Made by a program: the position numbers and the translations under genes
The notes under the pieces: generated by a model
What the model was told of the DNA's origin: nothing
The model's database searches: none
What the model saw: the letters and a program-made list of their open reading frames with translations, nothing else
IMG/VR virus record: IMGVR_UViG_2537561991_000013
Location: 1-26,414 of that record
Direction: 5' to 3' (one strand)
Length of the DNA: 26,414 nucleotides
Source: a virus
Lineage: Duplodnaviria > Heunggongvirae > Uroviricota > Caudoviricetes
Shown here: piece after piece, positions 3,872-13,349 of the stretch
Numbering within the stretch: position 1 is the first letter of the stretch
How the letters are laid out: each line of letters begins with the position of its first letter

Positions 3872-3936
3872 TGATCTTACCCAGCAATAGTGGACACGCG
3901 GCTAAGTGAGTAAACTCTCAGTCAGAGGTGACTCAC

Positions 3937-5250: not shown

Positions 5251-6969
5251 ATGATTTTTAGGGATAGCTTGAGAGTATTACCTTATGGTCGAGTAGATAA
5301 TGATTTCTTCCAGATAGAAGAAAGACGTTCATGGAATGCAGGGCGATATTATTGGTCTAATAGAAGGATTTTTGGTTATATTGGAATTACTCAATCCAGT
5401 AATAAAGAGCTGAAAGATAAGTCGGGGAGAGAGGGATTCATAAGAAACCAGGCTGCAAGAGAACTGAAAACTATTATATCTAATTTGTTAACTGAACTTG
5501 CTGATAGATTTTTTGGTTCACGTTCTGATGACCGTAAAGAGCTTTTAGAACAAGTTAAGCGTGAAAAAGAGTTAAGAAAATCTGCTCAACAACAAGCTCG
5601 AAAATCAACACAAAAAAGTTTTTCAGAAGCTTTGAAGAATCAGACACCAGTTCTTGATGCTTCCTTGGAGGCTGTTAAAAGGCTGAAAACTAAGCTTGAT
5701 AAAACTGATGGTTCGTTAGATTTAAACTATCTTAAAATTATAGACAGTGATCTTACAAACTTAGATGCGTTGCGCAGTGAAATTAAAACGCCTATCAAAC
5801 CTCCAAAACTTGGAATGTATGAAGAGAAATATAGAGACTACAGAGATAAATTTAATGAGTTCTCTGCGTATATTCTACAAATGAAGTTAGCAATTAATAA
5901 ACTTGATTCTGAATTAAATAAACTTGAGCCTTCATTGTCAGCGAAAAATCACCTTGAAAAAAATCAAGGTATTATTAATTCTAAACTAACTAAGTTTAAT
6001 AACACGATAGAGGAGAAGATACATTCTCTTTTAAAAAAATGGGCCGATGAAATAAAGGTTGATCGAAGTGATTATTATGCTAAAACTATATCAGTTGTTG
6101 ATTCAATAGATAATGATTCACAAATTGAAAATGTGTTTAATTTGCTCGATAGTTTATATGTTGAGTCAGTTGATACCCTAACTTTCAAATATCAATCAAT
6201 AATAAAAGGTCTCGATAGATTATTTGAAGGTATAAACTTAGATTCAGCATTCTCATTATCTGAAGAAGAACGCTCATATTTTGAAGAAAAAGCTAAAAGT
6301 TTAAACGCGCTTGCACAGTTAGGTATTAGTGTTGAGATAATATCTCATGAACTTGAAGAAATGGATTCTATGGTAACCAGAGGACTAAACTCTCTTCCTA
6401 CTTCTGTAAAAGAACACCCTGGTTTTTCATTGGCGTTAAATGCTCACAGATCGCTTACTCAACAAATACGTTTCTTATCACCTTTGAAAATATCAGGTTA
6501 TCAATCCAGGCAGAGAATAACTGGAAAAAATATCATGGATTATGTCCTGAAGTTCTTTGGGGAGCGTTTCGAACGGCAACGAATAACTATTGAATTTAGT
6601 GAAGAGTTTAAGCAAATCGCAATAACAGATATACCATCAAGGATCTATCCTGTTTTTACTAATATTATCAACAATGCAATGTATTGGGTCAGTCTGTCAA
6701 ATAATAGGCTCATAAAGATTGGTTTTGTGAATTCTTTGGTTATCATAGCAAATTCTGGTCCGGCAATTGATACCGATGATATCCCGCGACTATTTGAACT
6801 ATTTTATAGCAAAAGAGCAAATGGACATGGGGTAGGTCTGTATCTATGTCGAGAAAACCTTGCTGTTGCACATCATAAAATATGGTATTCAGAACCTGAT
6901 GAAGGCGATAACTATTTAATAAAAGATGACGCTAATTTTGTGATCCAGTTCAATGGAGTGGAGTTCTAA
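5251..6969 (+). CDS. cytoplasmic histidine-kinase-like protein: coiled-coil-rich N-region, DHp-like H-box and HATPase_c catalytic domain; frame is open upstream to the IS3 end (5130), so the true 5-prime end is probably deleted
   Basis: C-terminal motifs: H-box-like VEIISHELEEMDSMV, N-box YPVFTNIINNAMYW, G1-like IIANSGPAIDTDD, F-box RLFELFY, G2 GHGVGLYLCRENLA. No hydrophobic TM segment. Visibly AT-rich; weak SD before the ATG at 5251; no in-frame stop between 5130 and 5251. Confidence 0.7.
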   Translation: MIFRDSLRVLPYGRVDNDFFQIEERRSWNAGRYYWSNRRIFGYIGITQSSNKELKDKSGREGFIRNQAARELKTIISNLLTELADRFFGSRSDDRKELLEQVKREKELRKSAQQQARKSTQKSFSEALKNQTPVLDASLEAVKRLKTKLDKTDGSLDLNYLKIIDSDLTNLDALRSEIKTPIKPPKLGMYEEKYRDYRDKFNEFSAYILQMKLAINKLDSELNKLEPSLSAKNHLEKNQGIINSKLTKFNNTIEEKIHSLLKKWADEIKVDRSDYYAKTISVVDSIDNDSQIENVFNLLDSLYVESVDTLTFKYQSIIKGLDRLFEGINLDSAFSLSEEERSYFEEKAKSLNALAQLGISVEIISHELEEMDSMVTRGLNSLPTSVKEHPGFSLALNAHRSLTQQIRFLSPLKISGYQSRQRITGKNIMDYVLKFFGERFERQRITIEFSEEFKQIAITDIPSRIYPVFTNIINNAMYWVSLSNNRLIKIGFVNSLVIIANSGPAIDTDDIPRLFELFYSKRANGHGVGLYLCRENLAVAHHKIWYSEPDEGDNYLIKDDANFVIQFNGVEF

Positions 6970-6970
6970 T

Positions 6971-8719
6971 ATGACAGTGGCAAATTATAATTCTCTTGTC
7001 CAGAAAACTTTCTGCGAAAATGCAATTCGTTCCGTTGTCATGATTGATGACGATTTTCTGACGTATTCTGAATCAATCAGGGCGTTGAATAACGAAGTTG
7101 ATTTAGACTACAACAAAATTGACTCATCTAAACGAGCCGCTACTCTTGAGAGCTTTTTTCAATCTAAAAATATGATTTGTGATGTTGACAATGGTTCTGT
7201 TAATTTCGATGTGGATCGGATTAGAAAATCAGATCTTATTATTGTAGATTATCATCTTGATAATAATGCACCTGATAAAACACTTAAACTATTACAAGAT
7301 TTGAAAGACTCCGATCATTTAAATATGATTGTAATATATACTAGAGAGAATTTAGAAACGGTTTGGATGCAGATATCATCGACTCTCAAAGGTGCTCTGG
7401 ATATCAACAGCTTGATCATTGACTACGATAATGAAGATGTCCAAAGTTATTGGGAAGACGTTGTATTACCGAACTTAAATGATAATGGTAATAAAGCTCT
7501 CACAAGAGATGAAACAATAGCCTATATTAAAGACAGTAAGCCTTGTAGAAGAATTAAAAGATTAATACATGATGATGCTGTGTTGGAGGAACAAAAGGAT
7601 AAAAACTTCATTGCAAAAATGATTGCAGAATATGCTGTGTCTAGAAATGCAATTATTTCTAGCAACACATCTGGCAATGTCATTCGGGGTGATGAAAGCG
7701 GAGTAAAATGGATTCAATGTGGTAATATCTTTGTCTCCCTATTTCATAAGGTTCAAGATGATCATGAAAACGATGGAGATAGGATTTGGCAAACTCTCAA
7801 TGATTCTCTCATTGAATGGAAACCATCTTATTATCAGTTAATAAAATCTGAAATTCAGAATGCAATCGAAGCTGAGGCTTTATCTTTTGTAAATCATTTG
7901 GCTAACGATCATTACGGTCAAGCTGCGTGGTTAAATGAGATATTAAAATCAGACTCGCCTGATATTAGATGTAGAAATATTGACTTTGTATTTGGTAATT
8001 TATCAGAAGAGCTTTATCAAAGACTTAAAAATAATAATACGCTGGATGAATTTATCAAAAGTGTTTTTGATAGCTATTCAAATGAATACGCTAACAGCGG
8101 AGTTGCTGCATTGCTCCAATATTGCTCTTCAAAAATGGATCTGCCATCAAATAATGATACTTATCACGAAATGTATCATGCTTTAAATATGAATTTGTCT
8201 TCAAAGAATTTTGAAGATGGTCATATTTCTACTGGCACTATTTTCTTTGATACAGAGTCGAACAAATGGTATTTATGTGTATCTGCGGCATGTGATTTGG
8301 TTCCTACTCAGGGTAACGACCCTCACCATGTAAGATTAAGTCCGCACAGGCTCATTAAAGTTCTGGAGCTTTTTAACGCCAGTCAGAGTAAAGCATTGCC
8401 ATTTGCTGAACATTCGAAATATATATATGTAATGCATAAAAATCAAAGAAAATATCTCTCTATTTTCGAAGGGGATAAAACGCTTCCTGTTGTTGATTAT
8501 ATGGTGGTGTTGAATCATGGAACAACAGTTGATGGCGAAGAAAAAAATATTATTTCTGCCGTGTTTTTAAGTAATATGGATGGCAACGTGCAAAATGTTC
8601 CTGTCCGACTCAAACTTAAATCTCAACTGAGAACTGGTTATGCAGAAAGATATCAGGCTATAGCGTCTCAGTATAGCTCAAGGATTGGTGTGGATTATGT
8701 ATCAATGATGCTACCATAA
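6971..8719 (+). CDS. receiver (REC)-like N-terminal domain fused to an unassigned ~430-aa C-terminal domain
   Basis: ATG at 6971 is 1 nt after the kinase stop, with GGAGTGGAG as SD (the ORF track starts at 6953). N-terminus has REC-like beta1 VVMIDDD, beta3 DLIIVDYHLD, beta4 MIVIYT; the rest has no motif I can assign. AT-rich like the upstream gene. Confidence 0.55.
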   Translation: MTVANYNSLVQKTFCENAIRSVVMIDDDFLTYSESIRALNNEVDLDYNKIDSSKRAATLESFFQSKNMICDVDNGSVNFDVDRIRKSDLIIVDYHLDNNAPDKTLKLLQDLKDSDHLNMIVIYTRENLETVWMQISSTLKGALDINSLIIDYDNEDVQSYWEDVVLPNLNDNGNKALTRDETIAYIKDSKPCRRIKRLIHDDAVLEEQKDKNFIAKMIAEYAVSRNAIISSNTSGNVIRGDESGVKWIQCGNIFVSLFHKVQDDHENDGDRIWQTLNDSLIEWKPSYYQLIKSEIQNAIEAEALSFVNHLANDHYGQAAWLNEILKSDSPDIRCRNIDFVFGNLSEELYQRLKNNNTLDEFIKSVFDSYSNEYANSGVAALLQYCSSKMDLPSNNDTYHEMYHALNMNLSSKNFEDGHISTGTIFFDTESNKWYLCVSAACDLVPTQGNDPHHVRLSPHRLIKVLELFNASQSKALPFAEHSKYIYVMHKNQRKYLSIFEGDKTLPVVDYMVVLNHGTTVDGEEKNIISAVFLSNMDGNVQNVPVRLKLKSQLRTGYAERYQAIASQYSSRIGVDYVSMMLP

Positions 8720-9243: not shown

Positions 9244-10473
9244 TTAGGCTACCAGAGCATTTGATCTTTGAGCTTGAACGTAATCACTCCACCATTGCAT
9301 CAAACTCTGTCGCTCTATCAGATATTCTGCACGATTGTATGCTGCGATAATTTCATCTTTTTTCGAGTGGGCAAGCGCTGCCTCAAGAACTTCAGCTCTG
9401 AATTTACCAGACTCCTCTGCCGCTGTTCGTGCAATAGAACGCATACCGTGAGCTACAAGCTCGCCTCCGAACCCCATTCGGATGATAGCTGCGTTGGCTG
9501 TTTGTTCATGCATATGATTAAGAGGCGCTTTTATGCTGGGGAAAACCCATTCTCTATGCCCACTTATTGATTTCATTAATTCAAGGATGCGCAAAGCTTC
9601 TTTACTCAAAGGAACTTTGTGAAGCTTTTTCATTTTCATGAAATCAGCAGGAATGTTCCAAATGCTGTTGGTTGTATCAATATCAGACCACCTTGCGCGA
9701 ACGGCTTCACCCGGACGAACCCATGTCAACAATTGCCATTCAATTAGCATACGTGTTTCCAACCGGATTGACGCATTCGTCAAAGATTCCATAAACCTTG
9801 GCAATTCGCTTGGGGGAAGGGCAGGCATATTTTGCTTTTTTGGTTTACTGAATCTTTGACCAAGGTTGTCAGCCGGGTTGAACTCAATAAGTTCTTCAGT
9901 AGCTGCCCACCGGAAGATTTCATTCAGACGTGAAATGATACGGCGTAGAGTTTCCAATACGCCTCGTTGCTCAATAGGATCAAGGTGTTGTTTTAAGAGC
10001 TTAGGTCGGATCTCATTGATAGGGACATTACCCAGACCGGGAAAGACATTTCTCTCTAAGCTGCGCCAGATGTCTGCTGCATGGTCTTGTGAGATACCTG
10101 ATGTCTTTACCTTCTCATCTAACCATTTCCGCGCTACGGCTTGGAGAGTGTGCTCAGTAGCACTCTTTAATGCCTTCGCCTTATCGTTGTTATGGATTTG
10201 GGGATCAACACCATTTGCCAGAAAGGAGAGATATTCATCACGTAAGGCTCTGGCTCTTGCAAGGGTAAGGTGAGGATATGTCCCAAGGCTCATTTTGGTT
10301 CTTTTCTTGCTCACTGGTACTGCATACCTGAAATACCAATTTTTCTTGCCTCCTTTCGCCAAAGGAGCGATTCGTAGAATCAGACCATCACCGTCAAACA
10401 AGTTGATTTCTTTATCGGCTGGCTTGGTGCTTTTGATTTCAGTGTCAGTGAGCTTCTTAGCGATTTTTGCCAT
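9244..10473 (-). CDS. P4-type tyrosine integrase (CP4-57 IntA-like)
   Basis: ORF 9244..10515; likely start at ATG 10473 (MAKIAKKLTDTEIK...) with GAGGG RBS; C-terminal tyrosine-recombinase motifs (HGMRS...LAH...AAYNRAEY); sits 165 bp from the ssrA 3-prime fragment in the same orientation, as ssrA-intA does in K-12. Confidence 0.85.
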   Translation of the reverse strand: MAKIAKKLTDTEIKSTKPADKEINLFDGDGLILRIAPLAKGGKKNWYFRYAVPVSKKRTKMSLGTYPHLTLARARALRDEYLSFLANGVDPQIHNNDKAKALKSATEHTLQAVARKWLDEKVKTSGISQDHAADIWRSLERNVFPGLGNVPINEIRPKLLKQHLDPIEQRGVLETLRRIISRLNEIFRWAATEELIEFNPADNLGQRFSKPKKQNMPALPPSELPRFMESLTNASIRLETRMLIEWQLLTWVRPGEAVRARWSDIDTTNSIWNIPADFMKMKKLHKVPLSKEALRILELMKSISGHREWVFPSIKAPLNHMHEQTANAAIIRMGFGGELVAHGMRSIARTAAEESGKFRAEVLEAALAHSKKDEIIAAYNRAEYLIERQSLMQWWSDYVQAQRSNALVA

Positions 10474-10575
10474 TTTGGGACCCTCGGTTTTTGGACCCTT
10501 CTTAGTGGGTCCCATTCAGGGTGCCATAACTCGTAGTTCTCAGCAATTCTCACTGGACGACAATAGACGTAAAAA

Positions 10576-10608: not shown

Positions 10609-10638
10609 GACTTCATTGAACTTCAAACAACTAAAAAG

Positions 10639-10674
10639 TGGTGGAGCTGGCGGGAGTTGAACCCGTATCCGAAA
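10639..10674 (-). other. partial copy of the 3-prime end of ssrA (tmRNA): att-type junction, not a functional tmRNA gene
   Basis: TGGTGGAGCTGGCGGGAGTTGAACCCGtaTCCGAAA is the reverse complement of the tmRNA 3-prime end (...GGACGCGGGTTCAACTCCCGCCAGCTCCACCA) with 2 mismatches; the match stops after ~36 nt and the rest of ssrA is absent. Confidence 0.75.
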
Positions 10675-10868
10675 AATTCTTAACCAATTGAATATTAATG
10701 ATTTTTCTAATTTAAAATACCTCACGTGCATTTTACGTGCATATTGTAGTACCTCTAACGTCCTGATTCTGTCCAACATTTTGAAGTGTTTAGGCGCCAC
10801 TGGGGCGGTGATTAGCGCTGTTTTGTGCTGTTCATAGCACTTCAAGACTATTCAATTCAGAGCAATCG

Positions 10869-10897
10869 TTGAAGAATTACCCGTAAGGTAATATCAT
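10869..10897 (+). promoter_or_regulatory. sigma-70-like promoter candidate (TTGAAG - 17 bp - TATCAT)
   Basis: -35 TTGAAG at 10869..10874 and -10 TATCAT at 10892..10897 with 17-bp spacing, upstream of the hairpin at 10932 and the ORF at 11009. Confidence 0.35.
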
Positions 10898-10931
10898 ACT
10901 ATTTAGGTAACTGCGGTTATCACCATCAAGG

Positions 10932-10967
10932 GCCACTGATGACGCTGTTATCATCAGTGGCTTTTTG
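10932..10967 (+). terminator. strong intrinsic-terminator-like hairpin (11-bp perfect stem GCCACTGATGA / TCATCAGTGGC, 8-nt loop, TTTTT tail)
   Basis: Perfect inverted repeat 10932..10942 / 10951..10961 followed by TTTTTG; about 40 nt upstream of the RBS of the 11009 ORF, so it may be an attenuator or the end of a ~60-nt RNA. Confidence 0.5.
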
Positions 10968-10970
10968 TAC

Positions 10971-10992
10971 CTTCACTGCACAGCCAGTGAAG
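10971..10992 (+). promoter_or_regulatory. 8-bp perfect inverted repeat (CTTCACTG-cacagc-CAGTGAAG) just upstream of the RBS of the 11009 ORF
   Basis: Inverted repeat ends 4 nt before GAGGAG (10997..11002); candidate operator or translational control hairpin. Confidence 0.35.
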
Positions 10993-11008
10993 TGTTGAGG
11001 AGACTAGC

Positions 11009-11350
11009 ATGAGAACAGTAGCGAGAAGATCGATACAGACGATTGAGCGTCGGACTCAACTCGTCAGTTCTTTTGTTGACTCAAACACAGCAAACGAGTT
11101 CTTCGTGAGAAGACTGAGTGATCGTGTCTCCCCGGCACGTCAGCTGTTTATTGTGACATTGAACAATGAGGTTCGTGACGGTGACGTGATCCCGTTCGCT
11201 GAGATCGCCATGAACAAAGAAAAATTGCGCTATGTTGTGAAGCCAGCAGATCAGTATCCTCAGTATGTAAGCAGTAATCTGCTGAAGAAAATTGAAGCGG
11301 CAATTGCTCTATACATGCAGAAGAACTACAGGGAAATTAACTACCATTAA
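11009..11350 (+). CDS. hypothetical protein (113 aa), first gene of a two-gene cassette at the int-proximal end of the prophage
   Basis: ORF with GAGGAG RBS at 6-nt spacing; no recognisable motif; followed 11 bp later by a second ORF. Confidence 0.5.
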   Translation: MRTVARRSIQTIERRTQLVSSFVDSNTANEFFVRRLSDRVSPARQLFIVTLNNEVRDGDVIPFAEIAMNKEKLRYVVKPADQYPQYVSSNLLKKIEAAIALYMQKNYREINYH

Positions 11351-11361
11351 AAGGTTGCTGA

Positions 11362-12129
11362 ATGGCTCCTGCGTTAATACCTTCATATAACAAGGACTTG
11401 AACATTACGCCATTTGGCGAAAAACGTCTTATTGAGTCATTCTATTTTTTCACTGCCGAGGCTGGCTTACTGAGGGCTGATGAGTACATTGTCAGTTCTG
11501 GTGAGTTTCAGTACTACTTGGATGTGTATCAACTGGGATGTTCCACCGACGACTTTTTTTTAGACTATGGCAGTGACCTTCTTGATTCGAAGGTTCCAAT
11601 GCAGGATCTGGTCAATACCCTCTTGGGTCTTGATATGGTAGACGATAACAAAACGATAAGAATAGGTCGTATACAGTTCAACGACTTTAATTTTATCGAA
11701 GAGAACGGTCAGATGATGACCGGAAAGCAAGTGAAAAGCGCTGTTATCGCACAGGATTTCCAATCAGCAGGTTTGGCGCGTGAGATCTATAAAATGCTTG
11801 CGCGAAAGCATGAGTTTCTCATCTGCGATAACATTCAAAGTATTGCCGGTGGTGCTCTTTGGGCTAGTAGCATCATTCGAATTGCCGAGGTACGGATCTA
11901 CAATTCACGCACGAAGAAATTTATGGACATACTTGGTCCAGGTGCGCGTGGCGTTTCAGGTACTTTGCCATGGAGTGCGAATGATCTGTCTGTAGATGAG
12001 ATTGTTCGCTGGGGTCGTGCGTATGATGATGAAAACTGTTGTCGTCACATTGTACATGTTATCTGTAAGGACCGACTCATTGACGATCAATTTCATGATT
12101 ATGTTTCGATAGGTGGCGCGACAGAATAA
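11362..12129 (+). CDS. hypothetical protein (255 aa), second gene of the cassette
   Basis: ORF closely following the 113-aa gene; no recognisable motif; ends at a bidirectional terminator shared with the integrase. Confidence 0.5.
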   Translation: MAPALIPSYNKDLNITPFGEKRLIESFYFFTAEAGLLRADEYIVSSGEFQYYLDVYQLGCSTDDFFLDYGSDLLDSKVPMQDLVNTLLGLDMVDDNKTIRIGRIQFNDFNFIEENGQMMTGKQVKSAVIAQDFQSAGLAREIYKMLARKHEFLICDNIQSIAGGALWASSIIRIAEVRIYNSRTKKFMDILGPGARGVSGTLPWSANDLSVDEIVRWGRAYDDENCCRHIVHVICKDRLIDDQFHDYVSIGGATE

Positions 12130-12141
12130 CCATCAAAAAGA

Positions 12142-12164
12142 CCCGGCATTTGCCGGGTTTTTTC
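12142..12164. terminator. bidirectional intrinsic terminator (CCCGGC-ATTT-GCCGGG flanked by A-run and T-run)
   Basis: 6-bp GC stem with AAAAAG upstream and TTTTTTC downstream; sits between the convergent 11362..12129 gene and the integrase. Confidence 0.6.
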
Positions 12165-12170
12165 TTCAAA

Positions 12171-13349
12171 TCACTTCTTCATTCCAGATTCCATTGCGGT
12201 TTTCCCGTCGTATTCAGCCAGGTATTTACCGTAATTGCGGAACAGCATTTCCGGCCCCTTATGCCCCATCTGCCCGGCAAGCCAGAAAAGGTTTACACCC
12301 TGGCTAATGTGTCTGGTGGCGAATGTGTGGCGCGTCTGGTACGGGTTACGGTAGCGCACACCAGCTTTTTTCAGGGTCGGCACCCATGCTTTTTTACGGA
12401 TAGCGTCGGCGTTCGTCCAGGGATCTCCCGTTTTCGGATCGCTGAATATGAACTCACTTTTCATAAAGGTGTATTGCTTCTGCGCCTGCAGGGCCGCCAG
12501 CGCCTCACTGTTCAGCTCCACCTTACGGGTACCGGCTTTTGTCTTGGTGCCTTTAAGTACCCCTACGACACTGGCCGCCTGTATGTGCGCTGTATTACCT
12601 ATAAAGTCGATATCGGTCCAACGTAATGCGCATAGCTCAGAGCTGCGTAGCCCTGTATTGAAGGCGAAGCGGAACAGATTCTGCCATTCCTGATACTTGC
12701 AGTGCTGATATATGGCACTGGTTTCCGCAGGCGCAAACGGATCAACTTCGTAATCGTCGGCGTTCGGTTTACTGTCGACCACGTGATACCGGCTGGCGCT
12801 GACAAGAGTTACCGGGTTAATAGTCAACAGGCCATCAGTTACAGCCTCATCAATGGCGCTGCGCAGAAATGACAGGTTATTCCTGATTGTTTTCAGCTTA
12901 GTTTTTCGGCTGGCTATCCAATTTTTTAGTACCGCAGGCGTCAATTCTGTTACATGTAGTTTATGTAGTTCTGATAGTGCTGATAGACATTTTTCGTAAC
13001 CGCCAATGGTTGACGGCGACAGATTGCGGTTCATGCAAATTTTCAGGTATTCATCAAGATAGGACTTAATATTTTTGGTTTTCTTTACTACACCGAATAA
13101 CTCCAGTTTTTTGGAACTGGGGAAATATTTCGCATATTCAAACGTTCCGCTGGCGATCTGATTTTGTATCTCCCCTAGCAGGCGCTCAGCATATTTAATA
13201 CCACGTGTATTTGCCTCAAGCCGAGACAGGGGCTCCCTGCAAAGAACCCCTTTATATGTGAAAGTGATAACTAGTGTTGAAGCAGTTTTATGCTTACGAA
13301 TAGTTACTCCTCTTGGCAGAGATAATAATCCTTGTTCTTTCTTGCCCAT
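12171..13349 (-). CDS. lambdoid-phage tyrosine integrase (not lambda Int)
   Basis: 392-aa ORF from ATG 13349; C-terminal catalytic motifs RHTFATRH...GHKGPEMLFRNYGKY; an overlapping excisionase-like gene lies upstream. Confidence 0.85.
   Translation of the reverse strand: MGKKEQGLLSLPRGVTIRKHKTASTLVITFTYKGVLCREPLSRLEANTRGIKYAERLLGEIQNQIASGTFEYAKYFPSSKKLELFGVVKKTKNIKSYLDEYLKICMNRNLSPSTIGGYEKCLSALSELHKLHVTELTPAVLKNWIASRKTKLKTIRNNLSFLRSAIDEAVTDGLLTINPVTLVSASRYHVVDSKPNADDYEVDPFAPAETSAIYQHCKYQEWQNLFRFAFNTGLRSSELCALRWTDIDFIGNTAHIQAASVVGVLKGTKTKAGTRKVELNSEALAALQAQKQYTFMKSEFIFSDPKTGDPWTNADAIRKKAWVPTLKKAGVRYRNPYQTRHTFATRHISQGVNLFWLAGQMGHKGPEMLFRNYGKYLAEYDGKTAMESGMKK

Follow-up and report, generated by a model that had tools for sequence, protein, structure and literature searches.

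A probable transcription attenuator in the RNA leader of a mobile two-gene phage module

Here we describe the leader region of a two-gene module in the IMG/VR virus record IMGVR_UViG_2537561991_000013 (Caudoviricetes), of which positions 1 to 26,414, referred to as the window, were analysed at full length. The window is part of an E. coli chromosome, with 99.9-100% identity over the query to the O103:H2 strain PV16-126, and it contains the end of a lambdoid prophage integrated at ssrA. The leader region is located just inside this prophage, between the att junction and the phage integrase, and the order at the prophage end is att junction, leader region, two plus strand genes, bidirectional terminator and a convergent integrase gene. 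The leader carries a promoter, three hairpins and a U-tract ahead of the first gene, and it probably acts as a transcription attenuator.

The promoter is of the sigma-70 type and lies on the plus strand, with a -35 element TTGAAG (10869-10874), a 17-nt spacer and a -10 element TATCAT (10892-10897), matching 9/12 positions of the consensus. Taken by itself this match is no better than chance, with 1 site found and 1.9 expected. Within the spacer we read a palindrome, ATTACC-N5-GGTAAT (10876-10892), which overlaps the first base of the -10 element. From the promoter geometry only, the transcription start on the plus strand is predicted 7-9 nt past the -10 element, at 10904-10906.

The predicted transcript begins with a small 5'-terminal hairpin, here called P1 (10906-10921, plus strand), in which GGUAAC and GUUAUC form 6 bp including one G.U pair (10906-10911 / 10916-10921) around a UGCG loop, with an energy of -6.0 kcal/mol (z = -2.3). 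The linker ACCAUCAAGG (10922-10931, plus strand), which is unpaired in the minimum-energy fold, leads from P1 to an intrinsic terminator at 10932-10966 on the plus strand. This terminator consists of an 11-bp stem (10932-10942 / 10951-10961) with 100% complementarity, an 8-nt loop and a U5 tract, encoded by the TTTTT at 10962-10966 and followed by G10967. Its hairpin has an energy of -21.5 kcal/mol (z = -5.1), which none of 200 shuffled sequences reached, and the putative 69-nt transcript as a whole folds at -28 kcal/mol (z = -4.6). The U-tract is absent on the minus strand, where CCCTTG follows the stem. The sequence thus has the characteristics of an intrinsic terminator, namely a stable stem-loop and a U-tract on the transcribed strand only, and termination itself is predicted from them.

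Downstream of the U-tract, a third hairpin, P3 (10971-10992, plus strand), is formed by a perfect inverted repeat of 8 bp, CUUCACUG-CACAGC-CAGUGAAG (10971-10978 / 10985-10992), with a 6-nt loop. Its energy is ordinary (z = -1.0, 29 of 200 shuffles as good). P3 ends 4 nt before the Shine-Dalgarno sequence GAGGAG (10997-11002), which together with the ATG of gene 1 (11009-11011, plus strand) was taken from the sequence and the list of open reading frames (ORFs). No promoter-like site was found in the 42 nt from the U-tract to the ATG, so the module promoter can express the genes only via read-through of the terminator. Searching Rfam with the whole window at gathering thresholds, and with 10640-11060 at E <= 10, returned no leader family; only a tmRNA 3' fragment was matched. 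A first-pass annotation of the window had already proposed the promoter, the perfect 11-bp hairpin with its U5 tail and the 8-bp inverted repeat 4 nt before GAGGAG, and all three were recovered at the same positions; P1, the promoter-spacer palindrome and the terminator at the 3' end of the cassette are additions to it.

Gene 1 (11009-11350, plus strand) encodes a protein of 113 amino acids (aa) belonging to phrog_2594, a PHROG of unknown function. The N-terminal half of the protein is Arg-rich and nearly invariant, and the AF2 model (pLDDT 75) has a disordered N-terminus, a five-stranded sheet and a C-terminal helix, without a fold match in the PDB. Gene 2 (11362-12129, plus strand) encodes a 255-aa protein of phrog_3307, also a PHROG of unknown function, with a GNAT-acetyltransferase-like fold, an additional N-terminal beta domain and 5-13% identity to GNAT toxins. 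Neither protein has a match in Pfam, PADLOC or NCBIfam, and a sequence-profile search of the PDB with the module proteins returned nothing. Among the remote relatives of gene 1, found by a search of 1.8 billion proteins, none carries a Pfam domain. Furthermore, no description of the two-gene module came up in literature searches by phage name, protein accession and PHROG identifier. The 3' end of the module is a bidirectional terminator at 12141-12165, active by prediction on both strands, which consists of ACCCGGCAAATGCCGGGT (12141-12158) with flanking A and T runs; it separates gene 2 from the convergent integrase gene and would also stop int transcripts.

The exact leader is rare: it was found in 10 of 5,426 complete E. 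coli genomes and in four PhiR12 phage records, all at least 98.8% identical. The genes were therefore traced instead to find relatives. The 113-aa protein has 35 relatives (at 90% clustering), with identities down to ~60%, in Escherichia, Citrobacter, Yersinia, Pantoea, Serratia and others, and the 255-aa protein has 31. We gathered 52 module loci from genomes, IMG/VR and metagenomes, and gene 1 and gene 2 are adjacent in every one of them. In the PhiR12_1 phage (L002, PV340549.1) the 255-aa gene is annotated as two coding sequences, 713-913 and 949-1479, which suggests that the gene is disrupted in this isolate, even though its leader is intact.

The module occurs at three kinds of sites. In the window type it is positioned between att and int, and in a Pantoea ananatis prophage it is found within the tail and baseplate gene cluster of a myovirus. 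In a Serratia odorifera prophage it is found downstream of a Q-type antiterminator gene and several terminators and before the lysis genes, which is the classic late-operon position of a moron, like that of stx in Stx phages. In the latter prophage (L055), the stretch from the Q-type antiterminator gene to the module contains four terminator-like hairpins, at 5318-5658. The leader accompanies the module at all three kinds of sites, and in every context the module is on the strand of the late genes. As the module, with a promoter and 3' terminator of its own recognisable in the sequence, sits at three different positions in unrelated phages, we regard it as a mobile phage moron, an accessory unit. 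In PhiR12_1 the late genes (J and the tail fibres) are at the far end of the phage genome, on the strand of the module and heading to the att end. Thus, in the circular phage, late transcription enters the module in sense.

To compare the leaders, the 150 nt upstream of gene 1 were extracted, which gave 32 distinct sequences from relatives down to ~50-60% protein identity. Almost all of them share one plan: a promoter, a small hairpin 7-10 nt after the -10 element, a larger hairpin with a T run, and a third hairpin adjoining the Shine-Dalgarno sequence, which in the Pantoea type covers the GGAGG. A -35/-10 pair with a spacer of 16-18 nt is found at the equivalent position in nearly all leader types, with the end of the -10 element mostly 106-116 nt ahead of the ATG, and ~90-122 nt in the more divergent types. 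Because of this conserved position we accept the promoter despite its chance-level match. The DNA upstream of the promoter in distant type-I relatives is only 47-50% identical to that of the window. Related palindromes are present in the promoter spacers of most leader types, and the Yersinia-type loci have a different perfect palindrome, TATAGC-N4-GCTATA, in the same place. This makes the spacer palindrome a reasonable operator candidate.

A hairpin directly followed by T4-8 is found 38-49 nt before the ATG in 26 of the 32 distinct leaders, with a U5 tail in the window and U7-8 in other types. At least 10 different terminator stems are represented, for example GCCACUGAUGA/UCAUCAGUGGC, GCUACUGGUGA/UCAUCAGUGGC, CCACUAAG/CUUAGUGG, CCCACCU/AGGUGG and GGUCG.CGAC/GUUGCGGCC. 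The six exceptions (the Buttiauxella type, L026, L052 and L054) have an interrupted U-tract or no clear terminator. Different hairpins are also found in the P1 position of other leader types (AACAACC/GGUUGUU, UUACCAA/UUGGUAA). The linker is conserved within type I only, and there it is nearly identical among relatives whose proteins are only ~67% identical. Compared with the window, distant type-I relatives have 73-80% identity in the 62-nt RNA segment and 63-69% in the coding sequences.

To assess covariation, we aligned 27 leaders (26 distinct) over the stretch that begins with the start site and ends with the U tail. When P1 and the terminator are taken together, 87.5% of the cells are standard pairs, both sides have changed in 7 out of 17 pairs and there are 27 compensatory cells, a covariation score that was reached by none of 500 shuffles. 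When the partner was slid by 1-3 columns as a control, only 23-62% of the cells were paired. P1 alone is paired in 92.7% of cells over the 26 distinct leaders with double changes in two pairs, and the terminator alone has double-sided changes in five of its 11 pairs. Among the non-Watson-Crick cells, 46 are of the G.U type and six of the A.C type, which indicates that pairing is selected in the plus-strand RNA and not in the opposite strand or as a DNA palindrome. P3 shows one compensatory change from C-G to U-A, three wobble changes and one A.C mismatch in close relatives; across types it is a different hairpin each time, without significant energy.

A covariance model of P1 and the terminator found one match per locus, always upstream of gene 1 (E-values 1e-15 to 2e-2), and no second copy elsewhere in 254 kb. 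A strict pattern scan of IMG/VR returned only module loci and one chance match inside a coding region. What the analysis establishes is that the elements exist, that they are conserved and occur together with the module, and that they covary at the RNA level. The leader is a new RNA leader family of a known mechanistic kind, tied to an uncharacterised phage module.

The reading we consider likely is that the leader is a transcription attenuator of the two-gene moron, which also yields a ~60-nt RNA. The sigma-70 promoter (10869-10897) would initiate transcription at ~10905, possibly under the control of the spacer palindrome as operator, and the first 16 nt of the transcript would fold into P1. 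About 10 nt past P1, the 11-bp hairpin and its U5 tract would work as an intrinsic terminator, so that most transcripts would end near 10964-10967 as a ~60-nt RNA. Only polymerases that read through would reach the ribosome-binding site preceded by P3 and transcribe both genes up to the terminator at 12141-12165. In the lysogen, the attenuator would restrict expression of a possibly harmful module to a low, fixed level. In the induced circular phage, late transcription would cross attP into the module and, if it is terminator-resistant, override the block. The first-pass annotation had suggested a ~60-nt small RNA, an attenuator or an operator pair. The first two, which are not mutually exclusive, gain support from the promoter, hairpin and U-tract keeping their position before the same genes in 26 of the 32 leaders, with compensatory and wobble changes.

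Several points weigh against the attenuator. Both the start site and the termination, with its efficiency, are predicted, and the physiological role is our interpretation. The U-tract of the window has just five U. Moreover, six of the 32 leaders are without a canonical hairpin and U-tract, so the terminator is not indispensable for the module. The energy of P3 is not statistically distinguishable from chance, and toxicity of the module, which would be the rationale for tight control, is a conjecture.

It is possible, if on the unlikely side, that the attenuator is conditional, with P1, an alternative helix and the terminator forming a three-state switch that an effector, such as a module protein, a phage product or a stress signal, tips towards read-through or termination. 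The first-pass annotation had proposed to look for alternative antiterminator folds, and a candidate helix does exist at 10908-10950 on the plus strand. It pairs 10908-10922, which comprises both arms and the loop of P1, with 10937-10950, which comprises the upper part of the terminator 5' arm and the loop, and it is mutually exclusive with P1 and with the upper half of the terminator stem. With -11 kcal/mol it is the minimum-energy fold of the nascent RNA before the 3' arm of the terminator is made; this energy is, however, ordinary for the sequence (z = -0.5, 57 of 200 shuffles as good). In type-I leaders 91% of the cells are compatible with the helix, compared to 20-62% in slid controls, and two pairs change on both sides, but the covariation is not significant. 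Several variants (L003, L028, L031 and L032) show complementarity between the P1 loop and the terminator loop, and type-II leaders have a bistable design in which CGUGG can pair either with CCACG of the linker or with CCAC of the terminator arm, with comparable energies of -7 to -9 kcal/mol. In contrast, type-III leaders have no predicted alternative helix. The higher conservation of the RNA segment than of the coding sequence among distant type-I relatives would also fit a switch.

As for a sensor of such a switch, neither a conserved leader peptide nor a riboswitch or other aptamer match in Rfam was found for the leader, and the Pfam search gave no CAT/RAT-type protein and no known RNA-binding antiterminator domain. 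No co-variation was seen between the P1 type and the N-terminus of gene 1, which is nearly invariant. A lambda N-like binding of P1 by the Arg-rich motif of gene 1 was considered on its own and not taken up, being neither supported nor excluded, with an N-terminus that stays nearly the same while the P1 type changes.

Regarding a leader peptide, an upstream ORF of 19 codons, MTLLSSVAFCTFTAQPVKC, is located at 10939-10998 on the plus strand; it begins in the 5' arm of the terminator and its stop codon overlaps the Shine-Dalgarno sequence. L003-type loci keep it with a GTG start, but in the close relative L033 its fourth codon is a stop, and type-II leaders lack it. We rejected a peptide starting from the ATG at 10939 as it is broken in L033 and missing in type II. 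The corresponding frame of L006-type loci continues into gene 1, a possible reason for annotated gene 1 variants of 127-131 aa.

A second alternative, which we think unlikely, is that the terminated ~60-nt RNA has a dual function and acts in trans besides its effect in cis, either as an antitoxin or regulator of the module proteins, similar to type III or RCd22-AbiF systems, or as a base-pairing small RNA. The ToxIN layout likewise has the order promoter, RNA, terminator and toxic gene. Promoter, short structured RNA, terminator, lack of a second promoter and one or more possibly toxic genes together also make up the RCd22-abiF layout (PMC12373285). Stable small RNAs typically have a 5'-terminal hairpin and a terminator hairpin, conservation of primary sequence among type-I relatives is higher in the RNA than in the coding sequence, and GraL is a precedent for a trans-acting, leader-terminated RNA (PMC6829880). 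Against this, the RNA has no tandem repeats and its U tail is short, and the position expected for an antitoxin is already taken by a protein partner, gene 1. Types I, II and III have strongly different RNA sequences while both proteins are conserved, which means that there is no common seed or protein-binding motif except for CCAC/GUGG at the base of the stem. In 10 loci, complementarity of the leader RNA to the initiation regions of both genes was not above controls, with duplex z-scores of -1.5 to +1.0 against shuffled RNA.

We consider it doubtful indeed that the ~60-nt RNA is the functional third component of a new three-part module made up of the RNA, the 113-aa protein and the GNAT-like enzyme. 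If this were true, the RNA would be a sensor whose switch of P1, antiterminator and terminator opens on phage infection or prophage induction, or a protein-binding partner or antitoxin. An RNA partner would mean a logic like that of type III systems or RCd22, joined to an effector with a GNAT fold, and we found no description of such a combination.

Very improbable is the view that the inverted repeats function in DNA, as operators for a repressor, and not as RNA structures. All three hairpins are palindromic in DNA, the stem of P1 (GATAAC/GTTATC) is better conserved than its loop, and the Pantoea-type P1 (TTACC-N5-GGTAA) shares its form with the promoter-spacer palindrome, which is probably an operator itself. 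But the type of the spacer palindrome and the type of P1 are uncorrelated across loci, and the elements are located 10-95 nt downstream of the predicted start. In addition, stem sequences vary while pairing is retained, and the excess of G.U-type over A.C-type cells shows that it is retained only in the plus-strand RNA. The U-tract right after the second hairpin is conserved, and on one strand only. The operator pair that the first-pass annotation had allowed for the two hairpins is thus disfavoured.

It is scarcely credible that the hairpins arose by chance, or that the terminator merely ends outside transcription from a phage late operon or host genes and plays no part in the cassette: in favour of this, the promoter match taken alone stays at chance level and terminator-like hairpins are common in intergenic DNA, but the terminator is downstream and not upstream of a conserved promoter, moves with the module into three unrelated genomic contexts, is conserved through compensatory changes and is specific to the two-gene module.

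Among known systems, the RCd22-AbiF system of a Clostridioides difficile prophage offers a close comparison. It consists of a promoter for the housekeeping sigma factor, a short structured RNA and a Rho-independent terminator; most transcription ends at this terminator upstream of the toxic gene, which is expressed by read-through only, and the RCd22 RNA also neutralises the AbiF protein in trans (PMC12373285). The leader described here is likewise prophage-encoded, with a leader terminator and no promoter between the terminator and the downstream gene. It differs in having no match to the abiF motif (RF03085), even at an Rfam E-value <= 10, in a predicted RNA length of ~60 nt compared to ~100-130 nt, and in being followed by two genes, one of them GNAT-like, with no Abi_2 or AbiD/F protein detected by Pfam.

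Another example is GraL, the leader of greA in E. coli, where an intrinsic terminator in the 5' untranslated region near the promoter releases RNAs of 37-59 nt and about one third of the transcripts read through into greA (PMC6829880). The released RNAs have an additional role in trans, the sequence ahead of the terminator has a role in cis, the site of termination is not precise, and GreA exerts feedback via RNA polymerase (PMC6829880). Both leaders have a promoter-proximal terminator with a short RNA and read-through, which is predicted in our case. Unlike the phage leader, GraL belongs to a chromosomal housekeeping gene, and the two are unrelated in sequence.

Type III toxin-antitoxin systems (ToxIN, CptIN, TenpIN) share the order promoter, non-coding RNA, terminator and protein gene; their terminator sets the ratio of RNA to protein, and they are carried by mobile elements and have a link to phage defence (see also PMC3401426). 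Their antitoxins are tandem repeats processed by an endoribonuclease toxin, whereas the proteins here are beta-rich and GNAT-like. TRF found no type III tandem repeats upstream of the terminator, the only repeat being a 13-nt imperfect direct repeat with copies 31 nt apart. We also found no ToxN/AbiQ-like endoribonuclease toxin, as gene 2 has a GNAT-like fold and no match in Pfam or PADLOC.

In type II toxin-antitoxin pairs with a GNAT toxin (TacA-TacT, AtaR-AtaT, KacA-KacT), a small upstream gene is also followed by the gene of a GNAT-fold protein, and a palindrome overlapping the promoter is found in autoregulated toxin-antitoxin operons too. We nevertheless set the module apart from these pairs because gene 1 is not an RHH/DUF1778 protein, having no Pfam match and an AF2 model without a match in the PDB. 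To our knowledge, no leader terminator has been described for GNAT type II operons.

A further comparison is with the 6S RNA of lambda PR'-tR' with antitermination by Q, and with the classic attenuators trp, pyrBI and the RAT/terminator of bgl. In all of them, as predicted for our leader, a terminator close to the promoter leaves a short RNA as long as neither the polymerase nor the RNA fold is altered, and our leader has a sequence element in its promoter spacer, as lambda has its Q-binding element. The module differs by having no Q-like protein, no leader peptide and no CAT-domain antiterminator, and its leader RNA is much shorter than the 194 nt of the lambda 6S RNA. The concept of phage morons reportedly goes back to Juhala et al. 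2000. The module resembles them in its own promoter and terminator, its variable positions between conserved phage genes and its location on the late-gene strand, and departs from the standard description by the extra terminator between promoter and genes.

The mechanism of attenuation itself is familiar. What the leader contributes is a compact RNA motif that is absent from Rfam and tied to a mobile two-gene module in prophages of Escherichia, Citrobacter, Yersinia, Serratia, Pantoea and relatives. Leader terminators are emerging as near-silencers of toxic phage defence and abortive-infection genes, as in RCd22-AbiF and AbiD1. If our reading is true, a second, unrelated case in enterobacterial lambdoid phages, placed before a GNAT-like protein, would extend this theme. 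Furthermore, the element spans 130 nt and its phages lysogenise E. coli K-12, which gives an easy experimental handle on the regulation and function of the cassette.

Besides the module, the window includes the att junction and a second integrated element. The att junction is a copy of the 3' end of the tmRNA gene (ssrA) at 10634-10699 on the minus strand, seen as partial tmRNA matches in the Rfam search by E-value, and it separates the left island from the lambdoid prophage that bears the module. A complete tmRNA was not found in the window by ARAGORN or at the Rfam gathering thresholds, and ARAGORN found no tRNA gene either. The match of many E. coli genomes and of the PhiR12 phage records begins only at ~10639-10650 and runs rightwards from there. 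The tmRNA fragment lies between two integrase-bearing elements, with the P4-type integrase of the left island at 9244-10515 on the minus strand and the phage integrase, which has Pfam matches and is convergent to the module, at 12171-13349 on the minus strand. The arrangement looks like an ssrA attachment site in tandem occupancy, with an island carrying a P4-type integrase on the left and the lambdoid prophage on the right.

The left island also carries an overlapping pair of plus strand genes, 5251-6969 and 6953-8719. Their products are a HATPase_c/HEF_HK protein (Pfam: PF02518, PF19191) and a Response_reg_2 protein (Pfam: PF19192). PADLOC gave no confident defence-system match for the pair, which looks like a two-component-like conflict or defence pair.

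Several short sequence features were observed around the leader. In L033, a perfect DnaA-box-like sequence, TTATCCACA, covers the P1 3' arm and the linker at ~3911-3919. The window has TTATCACCA at the corresponding positions 10917-10925, so the box is not conserved, and we rejected it as probably a chance occurrence. An 11-nt tandem direct repeat, ACGTGCATTTT followed by ACGTGCATATT, is located at 10724-10745 between the att core and the module promoter, and its copies are candidate arm-type sites of the integrase. A 13-nt direct repeat is present as TGAAGTGTTTAGG at 10782-10794 and as TGAAGTGTTGAGG at 10988-11000, the latter copy covering the P3 3' arm and the Shine-Dalgarno sequence. Moreover, the motifs TTGAAGTG/CACTTCAA recur at 10781-10788 and 10838-10845.

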